DNA of 64,000 bases, taken from the NCBI GenBank assembly GCA_031431035.1, contig JANPCR010000182.1, positions 7,675 through 71,674 on the forward strand, written 5' to 3'. A program made the position numbers and the translations under genes. Within the stretch, counting starts at the first letter, position 1; each line of letters opens with the position of its first letter. The notes below the pieces were generated by a model, which was not told where the DNA came from, searched no databases, and saw only the letters and a list, made by a program, of their open reading frames with translations. Shown here one piece after another: positions 16,011 through 46,279 of the stretch. This DNA is from Rhodoferax sp. GTDB lineage: Bacteria > Pseudomonadota > Gammaproteobacteria > Burkholderiales > Burkholderiaceae_C.

Positions 16011-16186
16011 CTTCCCTAGGGAAGCTCTGCATAACTCATCGCGGAATCGTGTAGTGCCGGCTCGGGATGGGATGCAAGGCGGTTTTTGCAGCAAATATCG
16101 AGAATATTTGCAAAAAAACCAACGCCGCAGACCGCCCGAGGCCGGACTTCACGAGCCGCGAGGGGTTATGCAGACCTTCCCTAGGT
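16011..16186. repeat. GC-rich inverted-repeat element with central hairpin
   Basis: Arms of about 52 bp at 16015-16066 and 16133-16185, roughly 80-85% complementary. Perfect 14-bp palindrome CTTCCCTAGGGAAG at 16011-16024. Central hairpin at 16081-16120. Confidence 0.8.
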
Positions 16187-18670: not shown

Positions 18671-21600
18671 TTGACAAAATTTTTTGAGTTTTTCAGAAAC
18701 CTGGGCCAAAAGCTTCACCCCAAGCTAGACGCTTTGCTGTTTGGATTCTCCAGCTACGCCATTCCGGTGTTGGTGGGTTTTGTCAGCTTGTTGGCTTTGA
18801 TTGTTTGGAAAACCCAGTACGCATCGGGCGCTCCCCAACTGCTTGAGTTGCGGGTTTTCAAGACTGGTGCGGCCGCAGCCCCAGCGCAAACCTCTGCGCC
18901 CGACTTGCAGGCAGTTTTGAGCCAAATTGCCAAGCAACCCATCGTCCCTTTTGCCGACACGGACTTGAATGAAGCTCCGTTTTGGGTATCTTTCACCTCC
19001 CCTGCCAGTGATGCCATGGCGCTGATGGAAGTGGAATTTCCATCGCGCCACGCGGTGGAAGTCACCTGCTGGAATGCGGACACACAAGCCTTGTTGGGCC
19101 GCGCCAACCGCGATAGCGCTGGCGGGCAGATCTCGGAAATCAAAGCGGGGTTTGTGCTCATCACGGCGATGTCCACCCAACCACAAAACGTCATTTGCCA
19201 AGTGTTGTCGATTGGCCCTGCCCGCATCACGGCCTTGTCATGGCAATCGGCCGATCTGCAAATGTCGGCGCAAGAGTTTCACCGCAAATCAGGCCTGCTC
19301 GAGGGCGGCATCCTGATTCTGGCAGTGTTTGTCCTGGTCACTGCCATGATCAACCGCAGCGCCTTGTACCTTTTGTTTGCAGCCTGGTTGGTCGTCAATT
19401 TGCGAATGGGTGCCCTTTCAGCAGGTTGGGACGCGCAATGGCTGGGATTTGCCATTCCATCTGAAGGCTTGGTGAGCATGCGGGCCATCACCATGGCGGT
19501 CTACTTTGTGCTGTCGGTCACGCTTTTTGGCATGTTGTTCCGGGAAGATCTGGTCAAGGTAGGAACCATGTGGTTGATGCGCATACCGCAGTGGTTTTGC
19601 TTGCCCCTTTTGGCCATATCCGCCCTTCTGCCCTACCGCAACTTCCTGCCCTTCCTCTGGATTGCGACGGGAGTGTTCATTGGTGTGATGTTGTTTTCGA
19701 TGGCCAAAATATTGATTTTGACCCGATCCAAGGCTGCCATTTGGTACAGCGCGTCGATCAGCATCACACTGGCCGCCAGTTTGTACGAGGTGATTGCCGC
19801 CGCCCTGGGTGTCAAGGGTCTGATTGGCTCCTTCAATAGCGTTACCGCGGCCTTGTCGTCGAGTTTGCTCGCAGCGGTGGCGATTGCGGCCCAAATGCGC
19901 CAAGAGCATGAAAAACGGCTAGAGGTGCAAGCCGAGCTTCAGCACACCTATGAAGCCATGCCGATTGGCCTGTTCACGCTTGATTTGCGCGGCCGGTTTT
20001 TGAGTGCCAACCCGGCGCTGATGCGCATGTTGGGTCACAAGGTGCTTGAAAAAGGCGGGCGCTCCTGGCAGCGCTATTTCAATGGTGGCGCTTGGGCGCA
20101 ATTGCACAATCTGGTTCATTCGCAAAGCGATGGCGAGCTTGAGATCAAAGGCCGAGCGCCATTGCTTGGCAACCGTGAAGTCAGCCGATTTTTGGTCAAG
20201 GCCACGCTGGCTCGCAACCGCATTGAAGGCTCTTTGCAAAACGTGACGGAGAAAGCCAAGGCCACGGAAGAATTGCTTTTTTTGGTCAATAACGACCCGT
20301 TGACCAAGGTATTGAACCGACGCGGCATCGAAAAGGCGCTGGACTCGGCCATGTCAGAGTTGGCCAATGGCAAACCCCTGGCGCTGGCCTACCTCGATCT
20401 GGACCGATTCAGGCTGATCAACGATTTGTTTGGCCATAACGCGGGCGATGAGGTTTTGCAGCAAGTTTGCCAGCGCGTGATTCACATGATTTCTGGCGCC
20501 ATGCAATTTGGGCGTGTGGGCGGCGACGAGTTTGTGCTGGTCATGGCTGACACCAAAATTCCTGTGGCGACTTTGATTTGCAAAGGCATTATTGAAAGCT
20601 TGGGCAGCACGCCTTATAAGGTCGGAGATCGCGCTTTTCATGTGCGCGGCTCGATTGGGCTAATTGACGTCGGCGCAGAAATGCAGGTCAAAGACGCTGT
20701 CTCCACCGCCGACCGTGCGTGCCACGAAGCCAAGGCTGGCAGTGGCGACGGTTTGGTGGTGTTTGAACGCAACGCCAGCGCCTTTGACCAGCACGAGGCG
20801 GAGTTGCGGCTGGTGGAGCAACTGTCCAACACCAATGCGACAGACGGTTTGTTTTTGATGATGCAGCCCATCATGTCCTTGACCTCGCCCTCGGAGTCGC
20901 TCAATTTTGAGGTGCTGCTTCGCATGCTGGACCATGAAGGCAAGTTGATTCCGACAGACCGATTGATCTCAGCTGGCGAAAGCAGTGGCCAAATGAGCGT
21001 GATTGACCGCTGGGTCTTGTCGACCACCCTGGCGTGGATGAACACCCACAGCAGCACCCTTGAAAACACCAAGTTCGTGTGCATGAACCTGAGTGGTGCG
21101 TCCCTCAACGACGAAAAGTTTTTGCAAGATGTGTACGCCATGCTGGAACTGAACACCAACATCGTCTCGCACCTTTGCCTTGAAATCACGGAAAGCGTGG
21201 CCTTGCACGACTTGAACAACACGCGCCGCTTTGTCGACAAGGTGCGCAGTTATGGCGCGAAAGTGGCGCTGGATGACTTTGGCGCAGGCTACACCTCGTT
21301 CTCGTACCTGAAGGAACTGACGGCCGATTTGCTCAAAATTGACGGCAGTTTCATTGTGGACATGAACCGCCACCCGGCCAATGTAGCGATTGTGGAGGCC
21401 ATTGTCAGCCTGGCCCGGAATTTGGGCATGAAGACCATCGCCGAATGGGCAGAAGACTCGGCAACCGTGCAGACCTTAACTGAAATTGGCGTGGACTACG
21501 TGCAAGGCTTTGTTGTGGCACGGCCCCAAATGCCAGAAAACCTGCTGACGGCCACCTCGTCAGCCAGCTTTGTGGTCGATGCTGATTTGCTGCAGTTTTT

Positions 21601-21679
21601 ATCGTTGCTTGAGCGCTCGGACCCAGCGGTGGTTCAGGTGGATTTGTTTGAGCAAGCCAACCTGCAAAGTTTACATTGA
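18671..21679 (+). CDS. 7TMR-DISM membrane sensor with PAS, GGDEF and EAL domains (c-di-GMP turnover)
   Basis: 1002 aa. N-terminal periplasmic region plus about 7 TM helices, a PAS-like segment, an intact GGDEF motif (RVGGDEFVLVM), and an EAL domain (EVLLR, DDFGAGYTSFSYL, KIDGSFI). TTG start with GGAGA upstream. Confidence 0.85.
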   Translation: MTKFFEFFRNLGQKLHPKLDALLFGFSSYAIPVLVGFVSLLALIVWKTQYASGAPQLLELRVFKTGAAAAPAQTSAPDLQAVLSQIAKQPIVPFADTDLNEAPFWVSFTSPASDAMALMEVEFPSRHAVEVTCWNADTQALLGRANRDSAGGQISEIKAGFVLITAMSTQPQNVICQVLSIGPARITALSWQSADLQMSAQEFHRKSGLLEGGILILAVFVLVTAMINRSALYLLFAAWLVVNLRMGALSAGWDAQWLGFAIPSEGLVSMRAITMAVYFVLSVTLFGMLFREDLVKVGTMWLMRIPQWFCLPLLAISALLPYRNFLPFLWIATGVFIGVMLFSMAKILILTRSKAAIWYSASISITLAASLYEVIAAALGVKGLIGSFNSVTAALSSSLLAAVAIAAQMRQEHEKRLEVQAELQHTYEAMPIGLFTLDLRGRFLSANPALMRMLGHKVLEKGGRSWQRYFNGGAWAQLHNLVHSQSDGELEIKGRAPLLGNREVSRFLVKATLARNRIEGSLQNVTEKAKATEELLFLVNNDPLTKVLNRRGIEKALDSAMSELANGKPLALAYLDLDRFRLINDLFGHNAGDEVLQQVCQRVIHMISGAMQFGRVGGDEFVLVMADTKIPVATLICKGIIESLGSTPYKVGDRAFHVRGSIGLIDVGAEMQVKDAVSTADRACHEAKAGSGDGLVVFERNASAFDQHEAELRLVEQLSNTNATDGLFLMMQPIMSLTSPSESLNFEVLLRMLDHEGKLIPTDRLISAGESSGQMSVIDRWVLSTTLAWMNTHSSTLENTKFVCMNLSGASLNDEKFLQDVYAMLELNTNIVSHLCLEITESVALHDLNNTRRFVDKVRSYGAKVALDDFGAGYTSFSYLKELTADLLKIDGSFIVDMNRHPANVAIVEAIVSLARNLGMKTIAEWAEDSATVQTLTEIGVDYVQGFVVARPQMPENLLTATSSASFVVDADLLQFLSLLERSDPAVVQVDLFEQANLQSLH

Positions 21680-21728
21680 GCCTGCAGTGACACTACGGTG
21701 ACCTTGCGCAGGCGAGCCGGCTGCCACC

Positions 21729-22640
21729 CTACTCAGCCCTAAGCGAACGCTTCAACTCTTCGCCAATTTCGGGTTTGCCAGCAAACGGACTGGTCGGATT
21801 GCGCGCCAAAATAATGTCCTCCATGCGGGTCTGAACCGACTTGATGGCGTGGGGGTGGCTGTAGATGTAGAAGCGGTTGGCAGCGATGGCGTCGAACACC
21901 ATGGCAGCCACGTCGGCTGCGCTGACTTTGCCGCTGTTAACGGCCTTGGACGTCATGGCTTGGCCAATTTTTTGACTTTTGGTCAGGGTGGCTTGCGCAT
22001 CAGTCATATCACCTGGGCGATTGCGTTCACTTTGGTTGATTCCCGTAGCCACAAAAAATGGGCACAGCACACTGGCGCTGATTTGGTCTGTGACTAGAGA
22101 CAAGTCGGTGTACAGCGTCTCGGTCATGCTGACCACCGCATGCTTGCTGACGTTGTAGACACCCATGTTGGGTGGGTTCAGCAAACCGGCCATGCTGGCT
22201 GTGTTGACAATGTGGCCCTGGTAGCCAGGGTCTTGTTTGGCGGCTTGCAGCATCATGGGCGTGAAGACCCGCAAGCCGTGCACGACGCCCATCAAATTCA
22301 CGCCCAAAACCCATTCCCAGTCTTTCAGCGAGTTCTCCCAAATCAAACCGCCCGCCCCCACGCCAGCGTTGTTAAACACAAAATGGGGTGCGCCGAAACG
22401 TTTGAACACGGCTTGACCCAGCGCTTCAAATTCGTCAGCTTTTGATACATCCAGCGGGAAAGCCAATACTTGGGCACCTGCGGCTTCCAATTCGTCGCTG
22501 GCTTTGGCCAAAGCATCTTTTTGCACATCTGCCAAAACCAGATTCATGCCGAGTTTGGCACCCAAGCGCGCGCATTCGAGCCCAAAGCCTGAGCCTGCGC
22601 CCGTCAAAACGGCAGTTTTGCCTTTGAAATCAGAAATCAT
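21729..22640 (-). CDS. SDR family oxidoreductase
   Basis: TGAGSGFG Rossmann motif and a YNVSK catalytic motif; 303 aa. Confidence 0.85.
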   Translation of the reverse strand: MISDFKGKTAVLTGAGSGFGLECARLGAKLGMNLVLADVQKDALAKASDELEAAGAQVLAFPLDVSKADEFEALGQAVFKRFGAPHFVFNNAGVGAGGLIWENSLKDWEWVLGVNLMGVVHGLRVFTPMMLQAAKQDPGYQGHIVNTASMAGLLNPPNMGVYNVSKHAVVSMTETLYTDLSLVTDQISASVLCPFFVATGINQSERNRPGDMTDAQATLTKSQKIGQAMTSKAVNSGKVSAADVAAMVFDAIAANRFYIYSHPHAIKSVQTRMEDIILARNPTSPFAGKPEIGEELKRSLRAE

Positions 22641-22641
22641 G

Positions 22642-23604
22642 TCAAGCTGCTACTTTCTTCAAAATGAACCCAATGCGCGGGAAGTGCACCTGAACCGTCC
22701 CCGCGCGGTCATCGGTGCGGCGCAAGGTGTAATGCATGCGGGTGGCCGAGATCAGCTCACCCTCGGTGGGTTCGGGGCCAAAACTGTCAGCCGCAATGGT
22801 GACCTGGCTGCCCAGCTCAATGCCATGCTCGTCCTGAAACTGCTCATTGCCAAAAACGCTGTCCGTCCAGCCAGATTGGGCGCACGCTTCGATGGCTTCG
22901 GTGGATGAGCAGTCTTGGTGCGTGCCGTGGCCCAAACTGGCCATGCGGTCCATCCAGGCCAAAACACCTGGGGTGGCATCCAGAACGCCCGCCATCACGC
23001 TGACTTGGGTGCGCGTGAACCAAAGCGGGTGGTAAGCAGAAAAATCAGCAACGCTGGGTTCGTTGCCCAACAGGAAATCTTGGCTGTCCAGCATGTTGGC
23101 CAGGCGACGCAAATAGCTTTTGTAAGTGGCCGCAGCATCGGCTGGCGGCATGCGCGGCTGGCCCAGGCGCATTTTGGCGCGGTCTTCAATGAAAGCTTTG
23201 CTGACCGTGGCGATGTTCTCGGGCGTGGTGCCTGGAAACGACGAAAACAGTTGGGCCGCACCTTTGGGCGAAAAGTTGTAGCCCATGGCCGCCTGAAACA
23301 CTTTGTCGTCCGCCCATTGGGACAAGATGCGGGCCAAGCCCTTGTGTTTGGCGGGGTACAAGGATGGCCCAGGGTGCAAATGCTCCAGCACATCGCAGAT
23401 CAAAGCGGTGTCGCAGTAAATGTCGGCACCCACCTGCAAAAAAGGCGTTTTGCGATACCCTCCCGTCAGTGCCAGCACATCGGGTTTGGGCATCATATTG
23501 GGCACGATGACCGACTTCCAGGCCAACTTCTTAAAACCCATCACCAACCGAATTTTCTCGGCAAACGGCGACGCGGGGTAATGGTGAAGAATCAGGTCGG
23601 ACAT
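22642..23604 (-). CDS. glutathione S-transferase family protein with C-terminal extension
   Basis: N-terminal GST-like thioredoxin fold (LHHYPASPFAEKIRLV...KTPFLQVG) and about 100 extra C-terminal residues of unknown function. Confidence 0.7.
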   Translation of the reverse strand: MSDLILHHYPASPFAEKIRLVMGFKKLAWKSVIVPNMMPKPDVLALTGGYRKTPFLQVGADIYCDTALICDVLEHLHPGPSLYPAKHKGLARILSQWADDKVFQAAMGYNFSPKGAAQLFSSFPGTTPENIATVSKAFIEDRAKMRLGQPRMPPADAAATYKSYLRRLANMLDSQDFLLGNEPSVADFSAYHPLWFTRTQVSVMAGVLDATPGVLAWMDRMASLGHGTHQDCSSTEAIEACAQSGWTDSVFGNEQFQDEHGIELGSQVTIAADSFGPEPTEGELISATRMHYTLRRTDDRAGTVQVHFPRIGFILKKVAA

Positions 23605-23676
23605 CGGTTTTCTCCTTGGGTGCTGAACAGTGAAATCAGGGCTTTGAAGTTTTGAGACGCAAATCTAACGGTCGAA

Positions 23677-24693
23677 TCAGATCAATTTAACTATTTGTTT
23701 GCCAAAATTCTTGCCCTTCAGCAGGCCCAAAAACGCCTCGGGTGCCGCCGCGATACCATGAGCGACCGATTCGCGGGGTTTGAGCTTGCCGCTGGCCACC
23801 AGGCCACCCAGCTCTGCCAAAGCCTGGGGCCAGATTTCCATGTGCTCGCTGACAATGAAACCTTCAACCTTCAGGCGGCTGACCAAAATGAGCGAGGGTT
23901 GCGCCAATGGCAAGGGTGCGCCGTCGTAGCCTGCAATCATGCCGCACACCGCAATGCGGCCAAAGGCGTTCATGCGGGTCAGCACCGCGTCCAGCACCAT
24001 GCCGCCTACGTTTTCAAAGTAGCCGTCAATGCCGTCCGGGCAAGCTTCTTTAAGGGCTTTGGACAATGACGCGGCGTTGCTGTGCAACTTGTAGTCTATG
24101 CAGGCGTCAAAACCCAGCTCGTCTGCTGCGTATTTGCATTTGTCTGGCCCACCGGCAATGCCGACCGTGCGGCAGCCTCGGGCTTTGGACAAAGCCGCAA
24201 AGGCACTGCCCACGGCGCCTGTTGCCGCACTGACCACCATGGTTTGCCCGGCTTTAGGTTTGATGATGTCGACCAAGCCGTACCAGGCTGTCACGCCGGG
24301 CATGCCCACAGCACCCAGGTAGTGGCTCAGAGGCACGTGGGTGGTGTCGACCTTGCGCAAAGCGCCTGGTTGGCTCACGTCAACCACGCTGTACTCTTGC
24401 CAGCCGCCCATGCCCACCACCTTGTCGCCGACAGCGTACTTGTCGCTTTTGGATTCGACAATTTCACCGACCGTGCCGCCGCCCATGGTTTGCCCCAGCG
24501 CTTGGGGTACTGCGTAGCTTTTGCCGTCGTTCATGCGCCCGCGCATGTAGGGGTCCAGGCTCAGAAAGTGGTGGCGCACCAGCACTTGGCCTGCTGTCAA
24601 CGCCGGAGTTTCAGATTCGACGAGTTTGAAGTTGCTGGCCATTGCTTCGCCGGTTGGGCGGTTGTCCAGGTGCATTTGTTGGTTGATTGGCAT
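23677..24693 (-). CDS. NADP-dependent oxidoreductase (medium-chain reductase, CurA/YncB/PTGR-like)
   Basis: 338 aa. N-terminal LSLDPYMRGRM motif and an AATGAVGS nucleotide-binding motif. Confidence 0.85.
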   Translation of the reverse strand: MPINQQMHLDNRPTGEAMASNFKLVESETPALTAGQVLVRHHFLSLDPYMRGRMNDGKSYAVPQALGQTMGGGTVGEIVESKSDKYAVGDKVVGMGGWQEYSVVDVSQPGALRKVDTTHVPLSHYLGAVGMPGVTAWYGLVDIIKPKAGQTMVVSAATGAVGSAFAALSKARGCRTVGIAGGPDKCKYAADELGFDACIDYKLHSNAASLSKALKEACPDGIDGYFENVGGMVLDAVLTRMNAFGRIAVCGMIAGYDGAPLPLAQPSLILVSRLKVEGFIVSEHMEIWPQALAELGGLVASGKLKPRESVAHGIAAAPEAFLGLLKGKNFGKQIVKLI

Positions 24694-24753
24694 GAAAAGC
24701 TCGCTAAAAATTGAATTGCAAAAGGAAAAAGGAAAGAGGAGTCAGTTTGATGG

Positions 24754-25191
24754 TCAGTCGGTTGAAACAATGTCATTTGGCGTTTCGCCATCTTGGGGGT
24801 TGGCATTTCGGTCGCCGCGCCTGACGTATTTGAAGGTGCCAGTGGCGTGCGCGCAGGCCAGCCCTTCCGCGTCAAAAATGGTGGCTTCGGTGAAGGCCAT
24901 CGATTTGGTGCGGTGCATCAAGTGCCCTTTGCTGGTCAGCATGCCACGACAGGGCCTCATGAAGCTGGTCTTCATCTCGATCGTGACGACCCCCATGTTG
25001 GGTTCAACGCTGCGCGCTGCGGTGGCCATGCTCACATCCAGCAAAGTCATGACCGCGCCACCATGCGTGACGTGAAACGTGTTCAGGTGTTCTGGCCGGG
25101 CTTCATAGCTGATTTGCGAATGACCCCCCTCGAAAACATCAAGTGAAAAGCCTAAATGCTCAACAAAGGGAATTTTGATGGCGAAAGTCAT
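24754..25191 (-). CDS. PaaI-family hotdog thioesterase
   Basis: HVTHGGAVMTLLDVSM motif typical of PaaI/4HBT class II. ATG at 25191 preferred; the ORF is open to 25209. Confidence 0.8.
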   Translation of the reverse strand: MTFAIKIPFVEHLGFSLDVFEGGHSQISYEARPEHLNTFHVTHGGAVMTLLDVSMATAARSVEPNMGVVTIEMKTSFMRPCRGMLTSKGHLMHRTKSMAFTEATIFDAEGLACAHATGTFKYVRRGDRNANPQDGETPNDIVSTD

Positions 25192-25236
25192 GAATAAATC
25201 GCAGGACACAAAGTGGCAAGCGTGGGGGCCATATTC

Positions 25237-26028
25237 CTAGGCACCCGTCACAACGCTGACGCCGCCATCCACGGCCATCCATTGGCCAGTGATGTGTTTG
25301 CCTGCGTCTGACGCGTACAGCAGGGTAATGCCTTTGAGGTCTTCGTCGTCACCCAGGCGATTGAGTGGCGCTGCGGAAGCCATCTTGTCTTCACCAAGCA
25401 AGTCGATCAGGCCAGCGGCCATTTTGGTCATGAAAAACCCTGGGCAAATGGCGTTGACGTTGATGTTGTACTGCCCCCATTCCGCCGCCAATGTTTTGGT
25501 GAAGTTGACCACCGCGCCTTTGGACGTGCTGTAGGCAATGGTGTTCATGCCTTTGGGGTTGCCGTTGAGCCCGGCAATCGACGCAATGTTGATGATGCGC
25601 CCTGCCCGATTCGGAATCATGCTGTGTTTGGCAATGTGTTGCGACAAAATGAAATAGCCGCGAATGTTGAGGTTCATCACCTTGTCCCAGGCGGCCACAG
25701 GGTGGTCCTCAGCCGGGGCACCCCAACTGGCACCCGCGTTGTTCACCAAAATATCAACCCGCCCCAGGCGCTGCAGACTTTCATCCCCCAGGCGGCGAAG
25801 GTCCTCTTCTTTGCCACAGTCGGCGGCAATCCAGCTGGCGTCAATGCCGACCGCCTTCAACTGGGCGGCCGCTTGCTCCAGGTCTTCGGCTTTGCGCGAA
25901 TTCAGCACGATTTTGGCACCCGCCTCGCCCAGAGCGTGAGCCATTTGCAGACCCAGGCCGCGAGAGCCGCCTGTGACCAGCGCCGTTTTGCCTTTCAAGT
26001 CAAACAGTTGTTGAATGGTTCTGGACAT
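25237..26028 (-). CDS. SDR family oxidoreductase
   Basis: TGGSRGLG Rossmann motif and YSTSK catalytic motif; 263 aa. Confidence 0.88.
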   Translation of the reverse strand: MSRTIQQLFDLKGKTALVTGGSRGLGLQMAHALGEAGAKIVLNSRKAEDLEQAAAQLKAVGIDASWIAADCGKEEDLRRLGDESLQRLGRVDILVNNAGASWGAPAEDHPVAAWDKVMNLNIRGYFILSQHIAKHSMIPNRAGRIINIASIAGLNGNPKGMNTIAYSTSKGAVVNFTKTLAAEWGQYNINVNAICPGFFMTKMAAGLIDLLGEDKMASAAPLNRLGDDEDLKGITLLYASDAGKHITGQWMAVDGGVSVVTGA

Positions 26029-26094
26029 GGGATTCCTTCAAAAGTGGTGCAAAAAGAGGTTAAAAAGTGTTTGGCGGTAAAATTTTTCTGCAGT

Positions 26095-26298
26095 TCAAGG
26101 CGCTGCCTTCAGGCGGGAACGCACATAAATCAAGGCGCTGCCAAGCACCACCAACACTGTGCCGATGACAAACATCCACCAGGCGGTTGACGCGTCGCCG
26201 CCCTGCACAAAGGTGCCCAACACCACCGTCAACAAACCGCCGTAAATGGCGATCCAGACGAGCCATTGCAAGCGGGTGAGCAATTTTTGGCTGACCAT
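26095..26298 (-). CDS. small two-TM membrane protein
   Basis: 67-aa product with two hydrophobic helices. Its ATG overlaps the TAA of the upstream acyl-CoA dehydrogenase (TAATG). Confidence 0.55.
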   Translation of the reverse strand: MVSQKLLTRLQWLVWIAIYGGLLTVVLGTFVQGGDASTAWWMFVIGTVLVVLGSALIYVRSRLKAAP

Positions 26299-28166
26299 TA
26301 AAAAGCCTCCAGCGCCAAATCGGCGCACGTCATGTCGCGGGATTCAACCACCTTGTACCACGCGCCGATTTTGGGGAGCTCATAGTGGTAAAAGTACTGG
26401 GTTGCCGCCAAAACGCCCTGGGTGGCGGGCTTGGACTGGGCTGCGTCGTGATGCAAAGCGGTGGCGGCCACGTCCAGCCAGATCCAGGCCAACACAGTGT
26501 GGCCAAAGCCTTGCATGTAGGGCACGGCATTGGCCAAAGCCTGCGCCGGGTTGCCGCTAGACCAAGCGGATTGCGTGACGCTGAAGGCCTGGGCAAGCGC
26601 ATGCTCTAGCGCGAGCGCGTGGGCGGCCAGGGCCTCAACCGGTTTGCAGCGGTCAATGGTTGAGGTAACGCGCTGGGCCAACAGGGTCAGGCCACGGCCG
26701 TCTTCCATCAGCACCTTGCGACCCAGCAGGTCAGCGGCCTGAATGCCATGCGCGCCCTCATGAATCATGTTCAGGCGGTTGTCGCGCCAGTATTGTTCTA
26801 CCGGGAAGTCGCGGGTGTAGCCGTAGCCGCCATGGATTTGAATCGCCATGCTGTTGGCCTCCAAACACCATTCGCTGGGCCAGCTTTTGGCAATGGGGGT
26901 CAGCACTTCGAGCAACAGGCGGGCGTCGTCTGCCGCCTGGGAGCTGCCTGTGTGCTGTTCGTCCACCAAACGGGCGCAATACAGTTCAAGCGCCAAAGCG
27001 CCTTCGCCATACGACTTTTGCGCCAACAGCATGCGTTTCACATCGGCATGTTCAATGATGGCAACCTGCGCTTGGGTAGCGTCTTTCACTGCCACGCCAC
27101 TGGCGCTGGCACCTTTGACGGGGCGGCCTTGCAAGCGGGTTTTGGCGTAATCAAGCGAAGCGTAATAACCCGCCAAACCCAGCATGGTGGCAGCTGTGCC
27201 GACGCCAATACGGGCTTCGTTCATCATGTGGAACATGCAGCGCAAACCTTCGCCGGGCTTGCCGACTAGGTAGCCGATCGCTCCAGGCAGGTCGGTCGGC
27301 CCATCGAGTGAACCCACTGGGTACTTGCCTTCGCCAAAATTCAGCAACGTGTTGGTGGTGCCGCGCCAGCCGAGCTTGTGGTTCAGGCCCGCCAAGGCCA
27401 CGTCATTGCGTTGGCCCGTCAATTCACCTGCCGTGTTGACCATCTTTTTGGGCACGATAAACAATGAAATGCCGCGCGTTCCGGCGACCAGCTTGCCGTC
27501 CGCCCCTGGAATTTTGGCCAAAACCAGGTGAATGATGTTTTCGGTCAGCTCGTGTTCACCGGCTGAAATCCACATCTTGTTGCCTTTGATGCGGTAGCGT
27601 GGCCCCAGGGCTTCAGCTTCGAAACTATCGCCATCGGGCACGGCGCGGGTGGTGATGTCAGACAGGCTGGAGCCCGCCTGCGGCTCGCTTAAGCACATGG
27701 TGCCCGACCAACGGCCTGAAAACTCATTCAGCGCAAACACATCGCGCTGCAAAGTGGTGCCGTGCTTCATCAGCAAATTGGCATTGCCCACCGACAGCAG
27801 CCCGGAGCCGATGCTGACCGAGGCCATGGCGAAAAAGGCGTTTGCGGCGGCTTCGACCGTGTAGGGCAATTGCATGCCACCAATGGCGTAGTCCTGCGAG
27901 GCGCTCAGCATGCCTGACTCTGCGTAGGCCTTTTGGGCATCATGGGTCGCCTGCGGCAGCGTGACTTTTTCGCCGTCAAAATGCGGCTCCTGCGTGTCGA
28001 CCAGGCGATTGAAAGGGGCGTATTTCTCGCGGGCGATGCGCTCGCAGGTGTCCAGAACAGCGTCAAACGTCTCGCGGGAATGGTCGCTGAAGCGCTCGCG
28101 CTGGTTCAGGCCTGCCGCTTGGAGCCAGTCAAAAAGAAGAAAGTCCAGTGTGTCGCGAAATGCCAT
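26298..28166 (-). CDS. large acyl-CoA dehydrogenase (FadE-type with C-terminal extension domain)
   Basis: 622 aa; the acyl-CoA dehydrogenase N-terminal, middle and C-terminal regions are recognisable (GGYGYTRDFPVEQYWRD). Confidence 0.88.
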   Translation of the reverse strand: MAFRDTLDFLLFDWLQAAGLNQRERFSDHSRETFDAVLDTCERIAREKYAPFNRLVDTQEPHFDGEKVTLPQATHDAQKAYAESGMLSASQDYAIGGMQLPYTVEAAANAFFAMASVSIGSGLLSVGNANLLMKHGTTLQRDVFALNEFSGRWSGTMCLSEPQAGSSLSDITTRAVPDGDSFEAEALGPRYRIKGNKMWISAGEHELTENIIHLVLAKIPGADGKLVAGTRGISLFIVPKKMVNTAGELTGQRNDVALAGLNHKLGWRGTTNTLLNFGEGKYPVGSLDGPTDLPGAIGYLVGKPGEGLRCMFHMMNEARIGVGTAATMLGLAGYYASLDYAKTRLQGRPVKGASASGVAVKDATQAQVAIIEHADVKRMLLAQKSYGEGALALELYCARLVDEQHTGSSQAADDARLLLEVLTPIAKSWPSEWCLEANSMAIQIHGGYGYTRDFPVEQYWRDNRLNMIHEGAHGIQAADLLGRKVLMEDGRGLTLLAQRVTSTIDRCKPVEALAAHALALEHALAQAFSVTQSAWSSGNPAQALANAVPYMQGFGHTVLAWIWLDVAATALHHDAAQSKPATQGVLAATQYFYHYELPKIGAWYKVVESRDMTCADLALEAF

Positions 28167-28212
28167 GGTCTGTCTAACTTTCTAAAACGGGCCAAAAAAC
28201 GGCGAAAACCTT

Positions 28213-28340
28213 AAAAAAGAACCTGCAGGTTCTTTTTTCTCAAAAAGGCCCTGAAAATGCCATTTTATGAATGAAATAGGCCTCTAGCTCTCGGAAAATA
28301 TATATAGTTTGCTATTTATATTATAGCAATTAAATTTCTG
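28213..28340 (+). repeat. AT-rich modular repeat, copy C
   Basis: Hairpin AAAAAAGAACCTGCAGGTTCTTTTTT at 28213-28238. Box1 at 28280-28292. Box2/box3 ATAGTTTGCTATTTATATTATAGCAA at 28304-28329. Confidence 0.9.
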
Positions 28341-28412
28341 ATGACCCGCTGCCTCAAGCGGATCTCCAGGCCCCGGGCCACTGCCTCGAGCGCCCGGCTA
28401 TCTAAATCAGCC

Positions 28413-29588
28413 TCAAAGCACCTCAAAAATCCCCGCAGCGCCCATGCCGCCGCCAATGCACATGGTGACGCAGACGCGCTTTGCACCGCGGCGCTTGCCT
28501 TCAATCAGCGCATGGCCCGTCAAACGCTGACCGCTCACGCCGTAAGGGTGACCCACAGCAATCGCGCCGCCGTTCACGTTCAGGCGTTCGCCCGGAATGC
28601 CCAGCTTGTCGCGGCAATAAATAACTTGCACGGCAAAGGCTTCGTTCAGCTCCCACAAGTCGATGTCTTGGACGGTCAGGCCCAGGCGCTTAAGCACCTT
28701 GGGAATGGCGTAAACCGGACCAATGCCCATTTCGTCAGGCTCGCAACCCGCCACGGCAAAGCCCAAAAAGCGGCCCAAAGGCGTCAAACCTTTGCGCTCT
28801 GCCACGGTTTCATTCATGATGACGCAAGCGCCGCCGCCGTCTGAAAACTGGCTGGCATTGCCCGCCGAGATCAAGCCACCTGGCAGCGCGGAGCGCAGGC
28901 CGGCAATGCCCTCTTTGGTGGTGCCGTCGCGAATACCTTCGTCGTGCGACACAGTGACTTGCTTGGTCGTCAAGCCCATCACTTTGTCGGCCACGCCCAT
29001 GGTGACGGTGATTGGCGCAATTTCAGCGTCGTACAAACCTGCCGCCAAGGCCGCCACCGCCTTTTGCTGGCTCGAAGCGCCGTACTCGTCCATTGCCTCG
29101 CGGCCAATGTTGTAGCGCTTGGCCACGTTTTCAGCGGTTTGCAGCATGTTCCAGTAAATTTCTGGCTTGTTTTTAACCAGCCAGGGGTCAGCCATCATGT
29201 GGGTGTTCATTTCCTGCTGCACGCAGGAGATACTCTCAACGCCGCCCGCTACAAAAATGTCGCCCTCGCCTGCAATCACGCGCTGCGCTGCCATGGCGAT
29301 GGTTTGCAGCCCAGAGGAGCAAAAGCGGTTGACCGTCATGCCCGATGTGGTGATGGGCAAGCCCGCACGCAGTGCGACCTGGCGGGCGATGTTGGCACCT
29401 GTGGCACCCTCGGGGGTGGCGCAGCCCATGATGACGTCGTCAACCTCTGCGCCTTCAATGCCAGCACGCTTTACCGCGTGCTCGACCGCATGGCCACCCA
29501 AAGTTGCGCCATGGGTCATGTTAAAGCCGCCCTTCCAGCTTTTGGCAAGGGGGGTGCGTGCGGTGGAGACGATTACGGCGGATGTCAT
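28413..29588 (-). CDS. acetyl-CoA C-acyltransferase (thiolase)
   Basis: NRFCSSGLQ active-site Cys region and a C-terminal CIGGGMG motif. ATG at 29588 preferred. Confidence 0.92.
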
Positions 29589-29649
29589 GGTGATTCCTTT
29601 GCTTGAGGGTGAAGGGAGTGAATGGATTAAATAAACAGTGAAGCGCCGG

Positions 29650-31137
29650 TCAAAGTGTTTGAGCACCGACTGTAACTAAGCGATGGTAAAAACGCACCAG
29701 TTCAGCCAGGTTGGCTGTGGAAATGCGCTCATTCGTGCCGTGAAAACGCGGCAGGTCTTCTGCCTTGGCGCGAACCGGTGAAAAACGGTAAATATGGTCG
29801 CTTACCTCGGTGAAGTGGGTCGAATCTGTGCCTGCCACCACCAAACCGGGAACGACCAAGGTGCCCGGAAAAACTTCGCGAATGGTGCGATTGATCAATT
29901 GGTACGCGGCCGCGTCGGTCGGCGACACCTTGGACGCCTCGCGCCCATCAGGCAAAGCAAACAGCTCGAACCGGTCGTTGCCCAGAGTTTCGCTGACTTG
30001 CTGCTTCACCCGCGCCAACACCGCTTCTTGCGTGTCGCCTGGCAACAAACGGTAGTTGACGGTCGCCTCAGCGCGGCCCGGCATCACATTGTCCTTGTTG
30101 CCCGCATTGACGATAGTGAGCGCCGTGGTGGTGCGAATCAGGGCGTTGGTGCTGGCCGCCGCTTCAAGTTGCTTTTGCACCATTGGCGCAAACAACCACA
30201 AGTTGGACAACGCGACGCGCGACATGCCGCTAGTTTCAGGCGCCAGCGTTTCGAACATTTCCCGGGCTACACCGCGCAGGCCTGCGGGCAGTTGGTCATC
30301 GTCTATACGGCGCAAAGCGGCACTCATCATGGCAATGGCCCCCGTGCCTTTGGGTGGCGGCATGGACGAATGGCCCGGCGTGGCCGGAAGGCGCAAAACC
30401 ACCGACAAAAAGCCTTTTTCAGCCAGGCCAATCATGGCCACGGGCGCTTTGACACCTGGCAAAATGCCTTCTGCAATCAGCAAGCCTTCGTCAATCACAA
30501 AATCCAGCCGAACCTTGCGTTCTTTCAATAAGGCAGCAATGCGCACCGCGCCCCGGTGGCCACCGACCTCTTCGTCAGCTCCAAAAGCCAAGTAAACCGT
30601 GCGCTTGGGTTGGTAGCCGCTGGCCACCAGCATTTCAATCGCTTCCATCTGCGCGATCACGTTGACTTTGTCGTCCCAGGCACCGCGCCCCCAAACGTAA
30701 CCGTCTTTGACCGTGCCTGAAAACGGCTCAACGGCCCAGTCTTTTTCAGTGCCCGCCGCAACGGGCACCACGTCTTGGTGCGCCATCAGCAGAATCGGCT
30801 TGGCCTTGTCGTCAGAGCCCTTCCAGGTGTACAAAAGGCTCAGGTCACCTACGACCTCGCGCGTGAGTGCGGTATGCGCCTTGGGGTAGCGGGTTTGCAA
30901 AAGCGCGTGAAACTGTGTGAACTGGTCGGCGTTGAGCGCCGGCTGTTTGTAGTCCGACACAGTGCGCAGGCGAACAGCCTCACCCAAGTGCGCCGCAGCG
31001 CCCGCCTCGTCTACCGCCAATTTGGCGATGGGCGCTGCGTCAATTTGGCGGGAACCCGACCTGAAAGTGTTGAACACCACAACGGCCACCACGATCAGCA
31101 GCAAGAAAAGCAATCCCAGAGCAATTTTTTTTAACAT
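29650..31137 (-). CDS. M20/M25/M40 family metallopeptidase, membrane-anchored
   Basis: N-terminal TM helix, with MAHQDVVP and GRGAWDDK metal-binding motifs. Confidence 0.85.
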
Positions 31138-31248
31138 AAGCGTCCCTGTTATTGTTTTTCGCTTCGAGTGAGGCTGTGGCTGGGGCTGCGGATTGTTTTG
31201 AATCTCAGGGGTTGGCGGGTCGCGTGCGCAGAACCCGCCAATTCACGG

Positions 31249-33348
31249 TCAATTGAACGAGTTGCCCTCAGCCGCCAATTTGGCCAACAGCGGCGCTGGC
31301 TCCCAAAACTTGGCGTCGTCCAGCGGGTTTTGCGCGAACTTCTTCATGCTTTGAACCACGTTGAACAGGCCCACCTGGTCGGCATAGTTCATGGGGCCGC
31401 CACGGTAAATGGGGAAGCCGTAGCCCATCAGGTAAACCATGTCGATGTCGCTGGCTTTGGACGCAATGCCCTCTTCCAAAATGCGGGCAGCTTCATTGAC
31501 CAGGGAGTAAACCAGGCGTTGCACAATTTCTTCGTCAGACACTTTGCGCGGCGTGATGCCTTTGGATTTGCGATGTTCTTCAATCATCGCCACCACTTCG
31601 GCATTTGGAATGGCATCGCGCTTACCCGCCACATAGTCGTACCAGCCCATGCCTACTTTTTGCCCAAAACGCCCCATTTCGCACAGCTTGTCAGCCGTTT
31701 TGCTGTAAATCATGTCAGGCTTTTCAAGCACGCGGCGCTTGCGAATGGCCCAGCCAATGTCGTTGCCCGCCAAGTCGCCCATGCGAAACGGGCCCATGGC
31801 AAAACCGAATTTCTCAATCGCCTTGTCCACCTGCGCCGGGGTGCAGCCTTCGTCCAGCAAAAAGCCGCCCTGGCGGCCATATTGCTCAACCATTCGGTTG
31901 CCAATGAAGCCATCGCACACGCCAGACACGACCGCTGTTTTCTTGATTTTTTTGGCCAGCGCCATGACCGTGGCCAGCACGTCTTTGCCAGTTTTGGCAC
32001 CGCGCACCACTTCGAGCAGCTTCATGACATTCGCAGGGCTGAAAAAGTGCAGGCCAACAACGTCTTGCGGGCGTTGGGTGAACGAGGCAATCGTGTTCAC
32101 GTCCAACGTCGAGGTGTTGGACGCCAAAATTGAACCTGGTTTCATCACCCGATCAAGTTCTTTGAACACCTTCTCTTTGACGCCCATTTCTTCAAACACC
32201 GCCTCAATCACCAAGTCGGCGTCTTTCAGGTCGTCGTAGCTCAAGGTGGTGGAGAGCAAACTCATGCGCTGGTCGTACTTGTCCTGCTTAAGTTTGCCTT
32301 TTTTGACCTGAGACTCGTAATTTTTGCGAATGATGGCAAGGCCCTTGTCCAGCGCCTCTTGCTTCATTTCCAAAATTTTGACGGGGATGCCCGCATTCAA
32401 AAAATTCATGGAGATGCCACCGCCCATGGTGCCTGCACCAATGACGGCGACCGAGTTCACCGCGCGTTGGGGCGTGTCGGCTGGCACATCAGGAATCTTG
32501 GAAGCCGCACGGTCGGCAATGAAAATATGGCGCAGCGCTTTGGACTCAGAGGTTTGCATGAGCGCAATGAAAATGTCCCGTTCGGTGGCCATTCCCACGT
32601 CAAATTTTTGCTTTGTCGCCGCTTCAACGGCGTCCACACACTTGACCGGCGCCGGGTAGTCTTTGGACATGCCTTTGACCATGTTGCGGGCAAACTGAAA
32701 GTAAGCGTCCCCTAGCGGGTGCTTGCAAGGCAAATTGCGAACCAAGGGTAAGGGCCGCGCGTCTGCCACCGAACTTGCAAAAGCCAAAGCTTCTGCAGCC
32801 AATGACTCAGGCGACGCTGCCATTTTGTCAAACAGCTTTTGACCTGGCAGCATGGCCAGCATTTCGCTTTTAACCGGGTCACCGCTGACCATCATGTTCA
32901 TCGCCACTTCAGACCCCAACACGCGTGGCAGGCGCTGCGTACCGCCCGCACCGGGAATGAGGCCCAGCTTGACTTCAGGCAAGGCCACGCTGCAGCCGGG
33001 GGCGGCGATGCGGTAATGGCAACCCAGGGCGAGTTCTAGCCCACCACCCATGGCGACGGTGTGCACCGCAGCGACCACGGGTTTGCCCGAATTTTCGACC
33101 GCCAAAATGACGCTGAGCAAATTAGGTTCTTGCAAGGCTTTGGATGAACCAAATTCTTTGATGTCCGCCCCGCCTGAAAACGCCTTGCCAGCGCCCGTCA
33201 AAACAATCGCCTTGACGGCGGCGTCGGCATTAGCTTTGGCCAAACCATCGGTGATGCCCACCCGGGTGGCGTAACCCAAGCCGTTGACCGGCGGATTGTT
33301 CAGGGTGATCACGGCAATGTCGCCATGCACTTTGTAGTCAGCGGTCAT
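31249..33348 (-). CDS. bifunctional enoyl-CoA hydratase / 3-hydroxyacyl-CoA dehydrogenase (FadB/FadJ-like)
   Basis: N-terminal crotonase fold (GAGKAFSGGADI) and central NAD-binding VAVIGAGTMGGGI; 699 aa. Confidence 0.92.
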   Translation of the reverse strand: MTADYKVHGDIAVITLNNPPVNGLGYATRVGITDGLAKANADAAVKAIVLTGAGKAFSGGADIKEFGSSKALQEPNLLSVILAVENSGKPVVAAVHTVAMGGGLELALGCHYRIAAPGCSVALPEVKLGLIPGAGGTQRLPRVLGSEVAMNMMVSGDPVKSEMLAMLPGQKLFDKMAASPESLAAEALAFASSVADARPLPLVRNLPCKHPLGDAYFQFARNMVKGMSKDYPAPVKCVDAVEAATKQKFDVGMATERDIFIALMQTSESKALRHIFIADRAASKIPDVPADTPQRAVNSVAVIGAGTMGGGISMNFLNAGIPVKILEMKQEALDKGLAIIRKNYESQVKKGKLKQDKYDQRMSLLSTTLSYDDLKDADLVIEAVFEEMGVKEKVFKELDRVMKPGSILASNTSTLDVNTIASFTQRPQDVVGLHFFSPANVMKLLEVVRGAKTGKDVLATVMALAKKIKKTAVVSGVCDGFIGNRMVEQYGRQGGFLLDEGCTPAQVDKAIEKFGFAMGPFRMGDLAGNDIGWAIRKRRVLEKPDMIYSKTADKLCEMGRFGQKVGMGWYDYVAGKRDAIPNAEVVAMIEEHRKSKGITPRKVSDEEIVQRLVYSLVNEAARILEEGIASKASDIDMVYLMGYGFPIYRGGPMNYADQVGLFNVVQSMKKFAQNPLDDAKFWEPAPLLAKLAAEGNSFN

Positions 33349-40580: not shown

Positions 40581-42236
40581 ATGACCAATGCCCTTCTCGA
40601 CCCGCATTCAAGCCCCCTTTCAGTTATTGCCGATAACCAAGCGCCGACCCCATCGGTCGCCAATGCCGCAGGCGCAAGCGTCTTGGCGGTCGATCCGCTT
40701 TACGACATTGGCCTGCCGTGGATCAATGAATTCGCCAAGCTCGGCCCGCCGTTCACCACCGAACTGTCGCCAGAACCCCTGCCCGCGCCTTACTGGGTGG
40801 GGCAAAGCCGCCAAGTCGCACATTGGCTGGGGCTGGACGCCGTGCACCTTCAATCGCCGCAGTTGCTGAATGCCCTGAGTGGCAATGCCCAATTGGCCGG
40901 GTCGCGCCCTTTGGCCAGCGTTTACAGCGGCCACCAGTTTGGCCAGTGGGCTGGGCAACTGGGCGATGGGCGTGCCATTTTGCTGGGCGAAGTGGCGCAT
41001 TCTGACGACGCCAGTTCGACCGCTGGGTTTGAAACCCAGCTCAATGGCGAGGGATTAGAGATCCAGCTCAAAGGCGCTGGGCGCACGCCGTATTCGCGCA
41101 TGGGCGATGGGCGGGCGGTGCTGCGATCCAGCATTCGCGAGTTTTTGTGCAGTGAAGCCATGCACGGGCTGGGCATTGCCACCTCGCGGGCGCTGTGCAT
41201 CACCGGGTCCGACGCGCGGGTGCTGCGTGAAGAGCTTGAAACCGCCGCCGTCGTGACCCGCATTGCGCCCAGTTTCATCCGGTTTGGACATTTTGAGCAT
41301 TTCTCGCACAGCGATCAGCACGATCAGCTGAAAGTTTTGGCCGATTACGTGATCGAGCGCTATTACCCTGAGTGCATGGCGACTGATAAATTCAACGCCA
41401 ACCCCTACGCGGCTTTCCTCGAAAAAGTGAGCGAAAGAACCGCCCGCACCCTGGCGCTGTGGCAGTCCGTCGGCTTTTGCCATGGCGTGATGAACACCGA
41501 CAACATGAGCATTCTGGGTTTGACGATTGACTATGGCCCGTTTCAGTTTTTAGACGCCTATGTGCCCAGCCACATTTGCAACCACAGCGACACGGGTGGC
41601 CGCTATGCCTTCAACAAACAGCCCAATATTGCCTATTGGAATTTGTACGCGTTGGGCCAAGCCTTGCTGCCTTTGATTGGCGAACAGGAGCTCGCGATTG
41701 CCGCGCTGGAGTCGTACAAAACGGTCTTTCCCCAAGCGTTTGAAGCCCAAATGCGCGCCAAACTGGGCTTGCCCGATGTGCAAAACGGCGACCGCGAGCT
41801 AATTGAATCCACCCTGAAACTCCTGGCCAAAGACGCTGTGGATTACACGATTTTTTGGCGGCGGCTGTCAAATTTTGTGAGCAGTACCGCAGGCCAATCC
41901 GGGGCGTTGGGTGCAATTGACCCCATCGACCCAGTTCGCGACCTGTTTTTGAACCGGGCTGATTTTGATGGGTGGCTGCAAACCTATTCAGCCCGCCTTG
42001 CCGACCTGAACCGGGCTGATGTAGCCGCGCTGATGCTCAAATCCAACCCGAAATTCGTTTTGCGCAACCATTTGGGCGAGCAGGCCATTCGAGCTGCCAA
42101 AACCAAAGATTTCAGCAATTTAGCCACCTTGCAAAAGCTGCTGGAGTCACCGTTTGATGAACACCCCGGTTTTGAAGCCTTCGCCGACTTTCCGCCGGAT
42201 TGGGCGTCGGGGATTGAAATCAGCTGCTCGTCTTGA
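40581..42236 (+). CDS. selO: protein adenylyltransferase (AMPylase) SelO / YdiU
   Basis: The [23 protein letters not shown] region and [23 protein letters not shown] are typical of SelO. ATG at 40581 preferred. Confidence 0.9.
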
Positions 42237-42258
42237 GGGCTTTTGTCAAAAACCACTT

Positions 42259-46063: not shown

Positions 46064-46128
46064 GTTTGAGACTTGCTTGATTTGATTTGAATTAAGCTGA
46101 TCGCAAAGCCAGCCCAGCTTCAAATCCC

Positions 46129-46163: not shown

Positions 46164-46165
46164 CA

Positions 46166-46277: not shown

Positions 46278-46279
46278 AT

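Follow-up and report, generated by a model that had tools for sequence, protein, structure and literature searches.

A modular A/T-rich mosaic repeat with a near-invariant core in Rhodoferax and Polaromonas-like Comamonadaceae

Introduction

What kind of element recurs six times, with the same internal spacing each time, in 64 kb of Rhodoferax DNA? The stretch analysed here (the window, 64 kb, 42.6% A+T) carries at positions 28213-28340 one copy, named C, of an A/T-rich sequence that a first-pass annotation had described as a family of six dispersed copies, A to F. We found that it is a real, abundant, clade-specific and non-autonomous interspersed mosaic repeat of Rhodoferax/Polaromonas-like Comamonadaceae. 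The element is ~115-125 bp long and non-coding, and consists of three modules: an interchangeable palindrome of at least four types, an A/T-tract spacer of ~40 bp and a near-invariant, asymmetric core. Repeats of the repetitive extragenic palindromic (REP) and bacterial interspersed mosaic element (BIME) type are among the least understood parts of bacterial genomes, and nearly all mechanistic work on them has been done in enterobacteria and pseudomonads. In the Rhodoferax element the modules are cleanly separable (swappable palindromes, a quantised and putatively bent spacer, an invariant core), which makes the protein or process that maintains them directly testable.

Results

Six copies with an exact core in the window

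The exact 13-mer GCCTCTAGCTCTC, which we call box1, occurs six times in the window, at 9250(-), 11568(+), 28280(+), 42327(+), 46204(-) and 50691(+), while ~0.56 matches would be expected by chance with two mismatches allowed. In all six copies box1 is followed after exactly 11 nt by box2 (ATAGTTTGCTAT in A, C, D, E and F; ATTGTTTGCTAT in B), and box2 after exactly 7 nt by box3, which reads ATAGCAA in C, E and F, ATAGTAA in D and GTAGCAT in A and B, or RTAGYA in generalised form. The invariant box spacing reported in the first-pass annotation is therefore borne out, and the mutual inversion of box2 and box3 that it noted takes the form of an inverted repeat, TAGTTTGCTAT-N7-ATAGCAAACTA. The copies are also A/T-rich in G+C-rich surroundings, as it had stated (58-74% A+T vs 42.6% for the window). 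Upstream of the core, every copy carries a palindrome, of the GAACCTGCAGGTTC type (P1) in A, C and E, the TCATATCACCGGTGATATGA type (P2) in B and F and the TTTACYACAATTGTGGTAAA type (P3) in D. With the stem limits used here (9305-9328 for copy A), the gap between hairpin and box1 is 38-43 nt rather than the 42-47 nt given earlier. The modules of the six copies are as follows.

9305-9328 (-): copy A, palindrome P1; the GST open reading frame (ORF) 9297-10007(-) reads through it
9213-9304 (-): copy A, spacer (9263-9304) and core; box1 9250-9262, box2 9227-9238, box3 9213-9219
11498-11525 (+): copy B, degenerate palindrome P2, AAAGTGATATCACCGGTGATGTGACTTT
11526-11617 (+): copy B, spacer and core; box1 11568-11580, box2 11592-11603 (ATTGTTTGCTAT), box3 11611-11617
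28213-28238 (+): copy C, palindrome P1, AAAAAAGAACCTGCAGGTTCTTTTTT; hairpin predicted on either strand
28239-28279 (+): copy C, spacer, 41 nt of phased A/T tracts; the A+T period is ~10 nt across 65 copies
28280-28329 (+): copy C, core; box1 28280-28292, N11, box2 28304-28315, N7, box3 28323-28329
42255-42288 (+): copy D, palindrome P3, ACTTAAATTTACTACAATTGTGGTAAATTTGGGT; 19 nt past the SelO stop at 42234-42236
42289-42376 (+): copy D, spacer and core; box1 42327-42339, box2 42351-42362, box3 42370-42376; stop of the convergent GNAT gene at 42413
46260-46281 (-): copy E, palindrome P1; HGSNAT stop 46280-46282 in the outer stem
46167-46259 (-): copy E, spacer and core; box1 46204-46216, box2 46181-46192, box3 46167-46173
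50622-50649 (+): copy F, palindrome P2, AAAGTCATATCACCGGTGATATGACTTT; 14 nt past the DbpA stop at 50605-50607
50650-50740 (+): copy F, spacer and core; box1 50691-50703, box2 50715-50726, box3 50734-50740; stop of the convergent WS/DGAT gene at 50776

A swappable palindrome, a phased spacer and a near-invariant core

The anatomy was derived from at least 68 exact and 8 diverged copies, taken from the window and from loci in Rhodoferax metagenome-assembled genomes (MAGs). The diverged copies came from a profile search over 460 kb of collected sequence, which added eight, none of them in the window. Conservation drops sharply past box3, which marks the right boundary, while on the left side it fades through the spacer into the palindrome, and the bases between the boxes vary far more than the boxes themselves.

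A palindromic unit of 22-40 nt is present in 57 of 65 copies, and at least four types could be distinguished: P1 (GAACCTGCAGGTTC), P2 (TCATATCACCGGTGATATGA), P3 (TTTACCACAATTGTGGTAAA) and P4 (ATACCCAATATGGGTAT). Stem positions 1-9 are paired in 77-100% of the copies with two to four pair types per position, and the stem extensions flanking the palindromes often co-vary. Palindromes without a core account for 2 of 62 P1-type matches (at most two mismatches), and none stands alone in the window.

The spacer sets the palindrome at quantised distances from the core. From the palindrome centre to the CTAG of box1 we measured 47.5-49 nt in 5 copies, 57.5-60.5 nt in 40 and 69.5-71.5 nt in 8, the typical values being 48.5, 59 or 70 nt; the centre of the box2/box3 inverted repeat lies 83.5, 94 or 105 nt from the palindrome centre, or ~8, 9 or 10 helical turns. 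The autocorrelation of A+T content along the spacer peaks at lags 10 (0.59) and 20 (0.39) in 65 copies, and A-runs and T-runs swap at three of the four tract positions. This 10-bp rhythm, together with the strand symmetry of the A/T tracts and the quantisation in steps of one turn, argues for an architecture at the DNA level.

The core comprises box1, 11 A/T-rich nucleotides and the inverted repeat, whose left arm is nearly invariant and whose right arm decays outward; the arms are mostly 7 bp long and reach 11 bp in some copies, and the N7 between them varies among copies. Variation at box3 positions 1-7 consists mostly of transitions, with 45 G.T-keeping changes vs 3 A.C on the forward strand. 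In RNA folding of both strands, two hairpins (the palindrome and box2-N7-box3) were predicted with z-scores down to -5.9, and no consistent fold was found between them on either strand.

Several other candidate features were rejected. A middle hairpin in the spacer is present only where tract 3 is a T-run. The mini-ORF ATGAATAAAATAGGCCTCTAG (MNKIGL*) has its ATG in the window copies, and this is not kept in the MAG copies. By eye, an IHF site (WATCAANNNNTTR) fits only those copies whose N11 ends in TCA, and a sigma-54 promoter lacks the GG 12 nt upstream of TTGC. A scanner found no sigma-70 promoter in either direction; the best median score of a position weight matrix was 8.3 bits (64 copies, both strands), and -35 hexamers are not conserved.

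Occurrence and the wider family

The first-pass annotation expected an abundant, dispersed family, and a pattern scan in which each species was represented by a single genome agrees with this: it gave at least 61 further loci, nearly all from three Rhodoferax MAGs, the remaining ones among the matches listed coming from a Polaromonas MAG and from a betaproteobacterial MAG without further classification. Copy counts outside the window are lower bounds. The contig L005 of one MAG matches window positions 21102-29104 at 90% identity and holds the orthologue of copy C, so that the window comes from a Rhodoferax close to that MAG, though distinct from it. No copy was present in 900 kb around the SelO genes of Burkholderiales relatives (at most 69% identity, among the matches listed), and we therefore consider the family clade-restricted; viral contigs contained no copy either. 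The element could not be matched to a named family at first, and this still holds. Neither the window nor six related loci had a gathering-score match in Rfam, with chance-level matches only at E<=5-10, and no named repeat in the searchable literature matches; neither source gave a hit to a characterised repeat or small RNA (sRNA) family. A literal sequence search of the literature returned only unrelated eukaryotic primers and the like.

Other Rhodoferax and Polaromonas contigs carry lineage-specific variants with a common layout, namely an A-tract, a box1-like pyrimidine-rich motif (GGCCTCTAGCCCTCG, GGCAGCTAGCCCAG or GGCATTTTCCCACG), a fixed gap and GCTAT-N7-ATAGC. The box1 sequence differs by lineage, and the shared part is a box1-like motif, 22 nt and GCTAT-N7-ATAGC, the window type being CTCTAG-N22-TGCTAT. 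In the contig L142 (DbpA 93% identical), a variant GGCATTTTCCCACGTCCTGTATAGATAGTTTGCTAT-N7-ATAGCA without an upstream palindrome occurs three times in 21 kb (4470-4600, 9720-9830 and 14300-14420, the same in L143); two of the three are situated 50-130 nt upstream of a gene start, which is not the context of the window type. The same contig has a VapBC (PIN/VapB) toxin-antitoxin pair at 11745-12409, between DbpA and WS/DGAT, where the window has copy F. In another contig (L145:4480-4540), a perfect palindrome with a 20-bp stem, AAAAAGAAGCCATAGCTATC-TAATT-GATAGCTATGGCTTCTTTTTT, lies between convergent genes, and its GCTAT...ATAGC is the tip of a seemingly ordinary bidirectional terminator. Matches to GCTAT-N7-ATAGC in distant Burkholderiales were rejected as elements, four of six being one conserved coding stretch that, by eye, is probably PurL.

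Relatives of the element have been detected statistically before and never described as elements. A survey of spaced motifs (Tong et al. 2017, BMC Genomics 18:27; PMC5217627) listed, as potential novel motifs of uncharacterised function, ATAGCT(N)22CAAAAG with 125 copies in P. naphthalenivorans CJ2, of which 34 lie between convergent genes and 18 in genes, and GCTTAT(N)5AAGCG in Acidovorax ebreus (114 copies; 44 convergent, 59 co-oriented, 4 divergent), and R. ferrireducens T118 had more significant motif pairs than any other genome. Its CJ2 pairs GCTAT_6_TATAG, TGCTA_6_TAATA and GCTAT_6_AGTAG are equivalent to TGCTAT-N7-RTAGCA, and the Polaromonas and Acidovorax pairs have the same context bias as the window element. 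The survey reports pentamer pairs and copy statistics only, with no boundaries, palindrome module, phasing, polymorphism or evolution.

Turnover and homogenisation at orthologous loci

Comparison of orthologous loci makes a solid case that the family was inserted, lost, inverted and homogenised while these species diverged. The element is neither confined to the six window loci nor fixed at them, since presence and orientation vary among relatives. In the syntenic contigs L146 and L149 (74-82% nucleotide identity to the window), diverged copies lie right after the SelO and DbpA stops in an orientation opposite to that of window copies D and F, and site E is empty, with a rotamase-HGSNAT gap of 1 nt vs 216 nt in the window. 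At site F, the contig L150 has a variant of different sequence in the same orientation as copy F. The contigs L021 and L060 share an orthologous intergenic region in which the element occupies different positions and orientations. As for a target-site duplication, no conserved flanking repeat was seen, and the empty sites (E and the patatin linker described below) are too diverged for exact junctions.

Copies also carry the signature of their own genome. In the two best-sampled MAGs, core position +10 is A in 86% of the copies of one and T in 93% of the copies of the other, and P1 reads GAACCTGCAGGTTC vs TTAACCTRYAGGTTAA; copies at orthologous loci follow the diagnostic core and palindrome state of their own genome. 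Copies within a genome are thus more alike than orthologues and share a species-specific consensus, which points to concerted evolution. Copy C and its L005 orthologue have an identical palindrome and 24 nt of identical proximal spacer, while their core spacers differ at about half of the positions, in a region that is 90% identical; judged from this alignment, the pattern is a mosaic one.

In a Rhodoferax MAG, OTE_78, four contig ends lie in an insertion sequence (IS), at L001:7289-7473(-), L042:2268-2452(-), L046:5840-6024(-) and L029:1-140. Its 24-nt end, GTGGAGCTAAGGGGATAGCCCACC, adjoins the CTGCAGGTTC half of the P1 palindrome, and it has two end types, one with an ORF starting MSKPKKQPKGGVDYPVNWGQYLDWFHT. 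This IS seems to have the P1 palindrome centre as its target and to break the assembly there, much as REPs are targeted by some IS.

A copy inside a patatin-like gene

Copy B lies in frame within the patatin-like ORF 11172-12446(-), and the whole copy is translated on the minus strand. The 424-aa protein is 100% identical to an NCBI protein (P0121), and homologues have 357-416 aa. Approximately 45-60 of its residues are encoded by the repeat, especially by 11498-11617, and the corresponding segment, between the conserved HLHLNY and LVLYPHF, spans only 5-6 aa in part of the homologues, whereas the others have 17-65 aa there. An IA(N) motif, encoded by the complement of box2, is present in 61 of 119 patatin homologues, and an ARGL-like motif, encoded by the complement of box1, in the window protein and in homologues such as P0149 and P0163. 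The N11 of copy B is G+C-richer (GAAGAATGGCC), which removes the stop codon expected in that frame from typical copies. The protein alignments thus show at least one in-frame insertion into a gene. Of the two in-gene copies, that of Polaromonas sp. P1-6 is similar to the consensus of the Polaromonas type, whereas that of the window has exactly the window-type box1. A further box1-like sequence at 11466-11478(-), with two mismatches, encodes the conserved APLVLY of the patatin protein; it is compatible with chance and was not counted as a copy.

Gene ends as the preferred location

Gene context was assigned with a simple, crude codon-usage gene caller. Among the 55 copies with a called gene on each side, the neighbours are convergent in 26 cases, tandem and co-oriented with the element in 13, tandem and opposite in 13-14 and divergent in 2-3; in the window, D, E and F lie between convergent genes, A is tandem co-oriented, C is tandem opposite and B is inside a gene. 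Stop codons are frequently found within a few tens of nucleotides of either element end. The element thus prefers gene 3' ends and avoids promoter-only regions, with no preference in orientation.

The first-pass annotation had proposed that copies A, D, E and F begin right after a stop codon, so oriented that hairpin and T-run would terminate the upstream gene. D and F indeed follow their stops cleanly. In copy A, the GST stop (9297-9299) is inside the element, 5 nt beyond the stem and 10 nt beyond the GAACCTGCAGGTTC core, and in copy E the stop falls in the outer stem. The element shapes the 3' ends of both genes (9297-9335 and 46280-46545); the HGSNAT ORF is 297 aa long in the window, compared with 249 aa in L146/L149, and over the last ~90 codons it does not align with relatives. 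The proposed orientation rule is not borne out in that form: tandem pairs carry both orientations equally (13 vs 13-14). The hairpin with a T-run was found for P1 and P2, which have an A-run, stem, T-run shape; P3 (TTTACCACAATTGTGGTAAA) lacks a proper T-tail, and the stems of P3 and of some P1 copies are weak. A consensus terminator scanner gave no call at the copy C hairpin. A terminator role is plausible for some copies.

Directly beside copy E, at 46125-46165, lies a canonical G+C-rich bidirectional terminator-like hairpin (AAAAGGCCCGAATTC...GAATTCGGGCCTTTT), and the copy E palindrome would therefore not be needed for termination at its locus.

Copy C lies between a thiolase gene (28413-29666, -) and an acyl-CoA dehydrogenase gene (26298-28166, -), opposite in orientation to both, and probably within or between co-transcribed genes. 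These genes belong to a beta-oxidation-like string at 26298-33348(-) that includes an enoyl-CoA hydratase/3-hydroxyacyl-CoA dehydrogenase and an M20 peptidase. Pfam scans of all called window genes, from which the flanking-gene families were also taken, gave housekeeping families only, with no transposase, recombinase or integrase gene; the absence of a transposase noted in the first-pass annotation is confirmed.

Comparison with known repeat systems

The element is best called a bacterial interspersed mosaic repeat that resembles REP/BIME, NIME/dRS3 and Correia elements while lacking defining traits of REPs, of REPINs and of MITEs (miniature inverted-repeat transposable elements). As with REP/BIME of enterobacteria and pseudomonads, extragenic palindromes are abundant at gene 3' ends as well as between convergent genes, a genome has more than one palindrome type, and a palindromic unit forms a mosaic with other conserved motifs. 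The families are likewise species-specific, persistent, evolving in concert and targeted by IS. The roles proposed for REP/BIME (mRNA 3' stabilisation or termination, binding sites for proteins such as gyrase and IHF) are similar to those that may be considered for the Rhodoferax element. An imperfect palindrome of ~20-40 nt repeated outside genes, which defines a REP, is present here (22-40 nt). In contrast to REP/REPIN, no conserved GTAG-like tetranucleotide stands at the palindrome foot, where A/T runs or variable stems are found instead (ATAG/GTAG is present beside the box2/box3 inverted repeat, not beside the palindrome), and each element has one palindrome rather than an inverted pair. 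Moreover, REPs are G+C-rich, whereas the Rhodoferax element is A/T-rich, is best conserved in a non-palindromic 13-mer and a separate A/T-rich inverted repeat, and has a phased A-tract spacer of quantised length. No RAYT (Y1 transposase) is encoded among the genes of the 64-kb window.

Unlike a MITE, the element has unrelated left (palindrome) and right (box3) ends and no terminal inverted repeats. The layout of TAGTTTGCTAT-N7-ATAGCAAACTA, two inverted arms of 7-13 bp around a 6-8-bp spacer, is that of a tyrosine-recombinase core site (lox/dif/att-like), a resemblance of layout only; if it were such a site, the variable N7 would block strand exchange between most copy pairs. An integron attC site or cassette does not fit, because the neighbours are housekeeping genes in both orientations and the window has no integrase.

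NIME/dRS3 repeats of Neisseria are high-copy intergenic mosaics in which dRS3, ATTCCC-N8-GGGAAT, serves as a target of recombination or integration. In Correia elements, which occur about once per 8-10 kb and have 26-bp terminal inverted repeats and TA duplications, an IHF bend site is found together with terminator and promoter-like activities. The Rhodoferax element shares with NIME/dRS3 the high-copy intergenic mosaic and a short inverted repeat with a fixed spacer; it has no sequence similarity to either family, lacks terminal repeats and would have an A-tract bend instead of an IHF site. With its in-frame, translated position and homologues lacking the insert, copy B recalls the Rickettsia palindromic elements (RPE), from which the family differs in that in-gene copies are exceptional (one of six in the window) and in having no sequence relationship. 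We also considered the BRE repeat of Bordetella and Polaromonas, which is ~90 bp long with 69% G+C, often forms tandem arrays of varying number and is found, mostly intergenic, in Polaromonas, Rhodoferax and other Burkholderiales (PMC3110155). The Rhodoferax element, with 58-74% A+T, is never tandem and is built differently, and BRE was rejected as the same family.

Discussion

A phased docking site as the preferred reading

We give about even chances to the reading that this REP/BIME-like mosaic repeat acts mainly at the DNA level, as a phased docking site for a protein. The element would work mainly as double-stranded DNA. Its phased A/T tracts would bend the helix and hold the palindrome centre whole helical turns (~8, 9 or 10) from the inverted-repeat centre, so that palindrome, box1 and inverted repeat might face one side of the DNA and together offer a platform on which a protein encoded in the genome docks. 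A nucleoid-associated protein is one candidate, and a transposase or recombinase that has been domesticated is another; either this protein or gene conversion between copies could spread and homogenise the family. In flanking transcripts the palindromes probably fold as well and may act as weak bidirectional terminators or 3'-end stabilisers, and copies might be tolerated or retained at gene ends for this reason, as with REP/BIME.

Several points weigh against this reading. No trans-acting protein was found, the window being free of transposase and recombinase genes, and bending and helical phasing are deduced from sequence statistics only. Gain and loss of ~10.5-nt spacer units without selection for phase could give the same quantised spacing. 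P1 and P2 resemble bidirectional intrinsic terminators, and an RNA-level role may be the primary one; the G.T pattern of box3 is likewise more typical of a single-stranded (RNA or single-stranded DNA) hairpin than of a site recognised as a duplex, although most of it falls at two positions and subfamilies could be its source. The test of concerted evolution used two diagnostic core positions and two orthologous pairs only, and the gene contexts depend on the caller used.

A bolder version, which we consider unlikely, makes the element the cis-site of a dedicated chromosomal copy-and-correct system, or an architectural supercoiling or chromosome site at convergent gene ends. In the former case, box1 and the lox-like inverted repeat would be the binding sites of a domesticated protein related to recombinases or transposases, the bent phased spacer would bring the palindrome to the bound protein, and the protein would drive insertion at gene ends and gene conversion throughout the family, the in-gene copy included. 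The hypervariable 7-bp spacer might then be a safeguard against ectopic recombination.

Alternative explanations

The docking-site reading has to be weighed against an RNA-level one, in which the element matters only within the mRNAs of flanking genes, as a 3'-untranslated-region or terminator cassette. The palindrome would be a bidirectional intrinsic terminator or a block to 3' exonucleases, the box2-N7-box3 hairpin and box1 would be processing or protein-binding signals, and copies would have spread by supplying termination between closely packed genes. This agrees with the location at gene 3' ends, with short distances to stops on both sides, with the A-runs before and T-runs after the P1 and P2 stems, with the two hairpins predicted on both strands and with the G.T-compatible variation of box3 on the forward strand. 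The GCTAT-N7-ATAGC at the tip of the long, canonical-looking bidirectional terminator hairpin of L145 and the position of copy C between perhaps co-transcribed genes fit as well. Yet the swaps between A- and T-runs and the spacing in helical turns have no obvious meaning in RNA, P3 is without a T-tail and, like some P1 copies, has a weak stem, and copy E already adjoins a canonical GC-rich terminator. Cores in tandem co-oriented positions lie past the terminator and would stay untranscribed, and termination does not need an invariant non-palindromic 13-mer. We regard this reading as possible, if doubtful. In another reading the element is a self-contained small transcription unit, either an sRNA gene in many copies or a promoter cassette, whose promoter in the A/T-rich core would drive a short RNA leftward (box1 complement, U-rich spacer, palindrome as terminator) or rightward (from box2, with a 5' hairpin). 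The distribution of copies speaks against it: 26 of 55 copies are convergent, often <40 nt from both stops, and divergent regions have almost none. The reverse strand can be read as TTGCTA-17 nt-TATNNA from box3/box2, TATWAT-like hexamers occur in the N11 on both strands (best median score 8.3 bits), two of the three L142-type variants lie upstream of gene starts, and phased A-tracts recall the curved DNA upstream of promoters. A sigma-70 -35/-10 pair, however, is not found consistently at any position of either strand, promoter hexamers and conserved boxes fall at different places, and neither a conserved RNA structure beyond the two palindromes nor an Rfam match was found, which leaves this reading a very slim chance.

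If the copies were static sites bound by a global regulator or a nucleoid protein, and had arisen where they stand through selection and not by insertion, this would account for the inverted repeat with its 7-bp spacer, for the strict spacing and helical phasing typical of protein-DNA complexes and for boxes much better conserved than the bases between them. A LysR-type T-N11-A site such as CTAT-N7-ATAG, or a gyrase- or condensin-type site at convergent ends, where positive supercoils accumulate, would be examples. What such sites do not explain is the polymorphism of the in-frame patatin insertion, the empty E site, the orientation flips at orthologous sites and the species-specific homogenisation of ~120 bp that includes non-box parts of the palindrome; these observations indicate that whole elements were inserted, replaced or converted, and repeated independent origin of a ~120-bp composite is implausible. 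We therefore consider static sites quite improbable, if a little less so than a transcription unit. A classical MITE, an internally deleted IS with terminal inverted repeats, a parent transposase and target-site duplications, has the slimmest chance of all. Size, A/T richness, copy number and intergenic location would fit, related genomes contain IS elements, and the window itself holds an IS5-like MITE; but the palindrome end is no inverted copy of the box3 end, a conserved duplication in the flanks is not seen, and the IS beside MAG copies is inserted into the P1 palindrome and does not share its ends with the element.

Whatever its mechanism, the family links previously unexplained motif pairs of Polaromonas and Acidovorax, and its orthologous sites may be filled, empty or inverted, with concerted evolution visible even in a copy within coding sequence. 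It also creates annotation artefacts in which proteins are extended at the C terminus or gain an extra segment, as in the GST, HGSNAT and patatin-like genes, and at least one MAG has contig ends where an IS lies in the palindrome. The element may serve as a strain-typing marker for environmental Comamonadaceae.

A separate MITE in the window

The window contains a separate, classical MITE of 171 bp at 16015-16185, in the divergent region between a Tex-like and a DUF1223 gene. Its 30-nt terminal inverted repeats (CCTAGGGAAGCTCTGCATAAC...) are 90% complementary, and CTAG stands at both outer edges, as in IS5-like elements. Copies with 87-95% identity are present in the MAG loci L025:2720-2889, L053:82-252 and L045:2981-3071.

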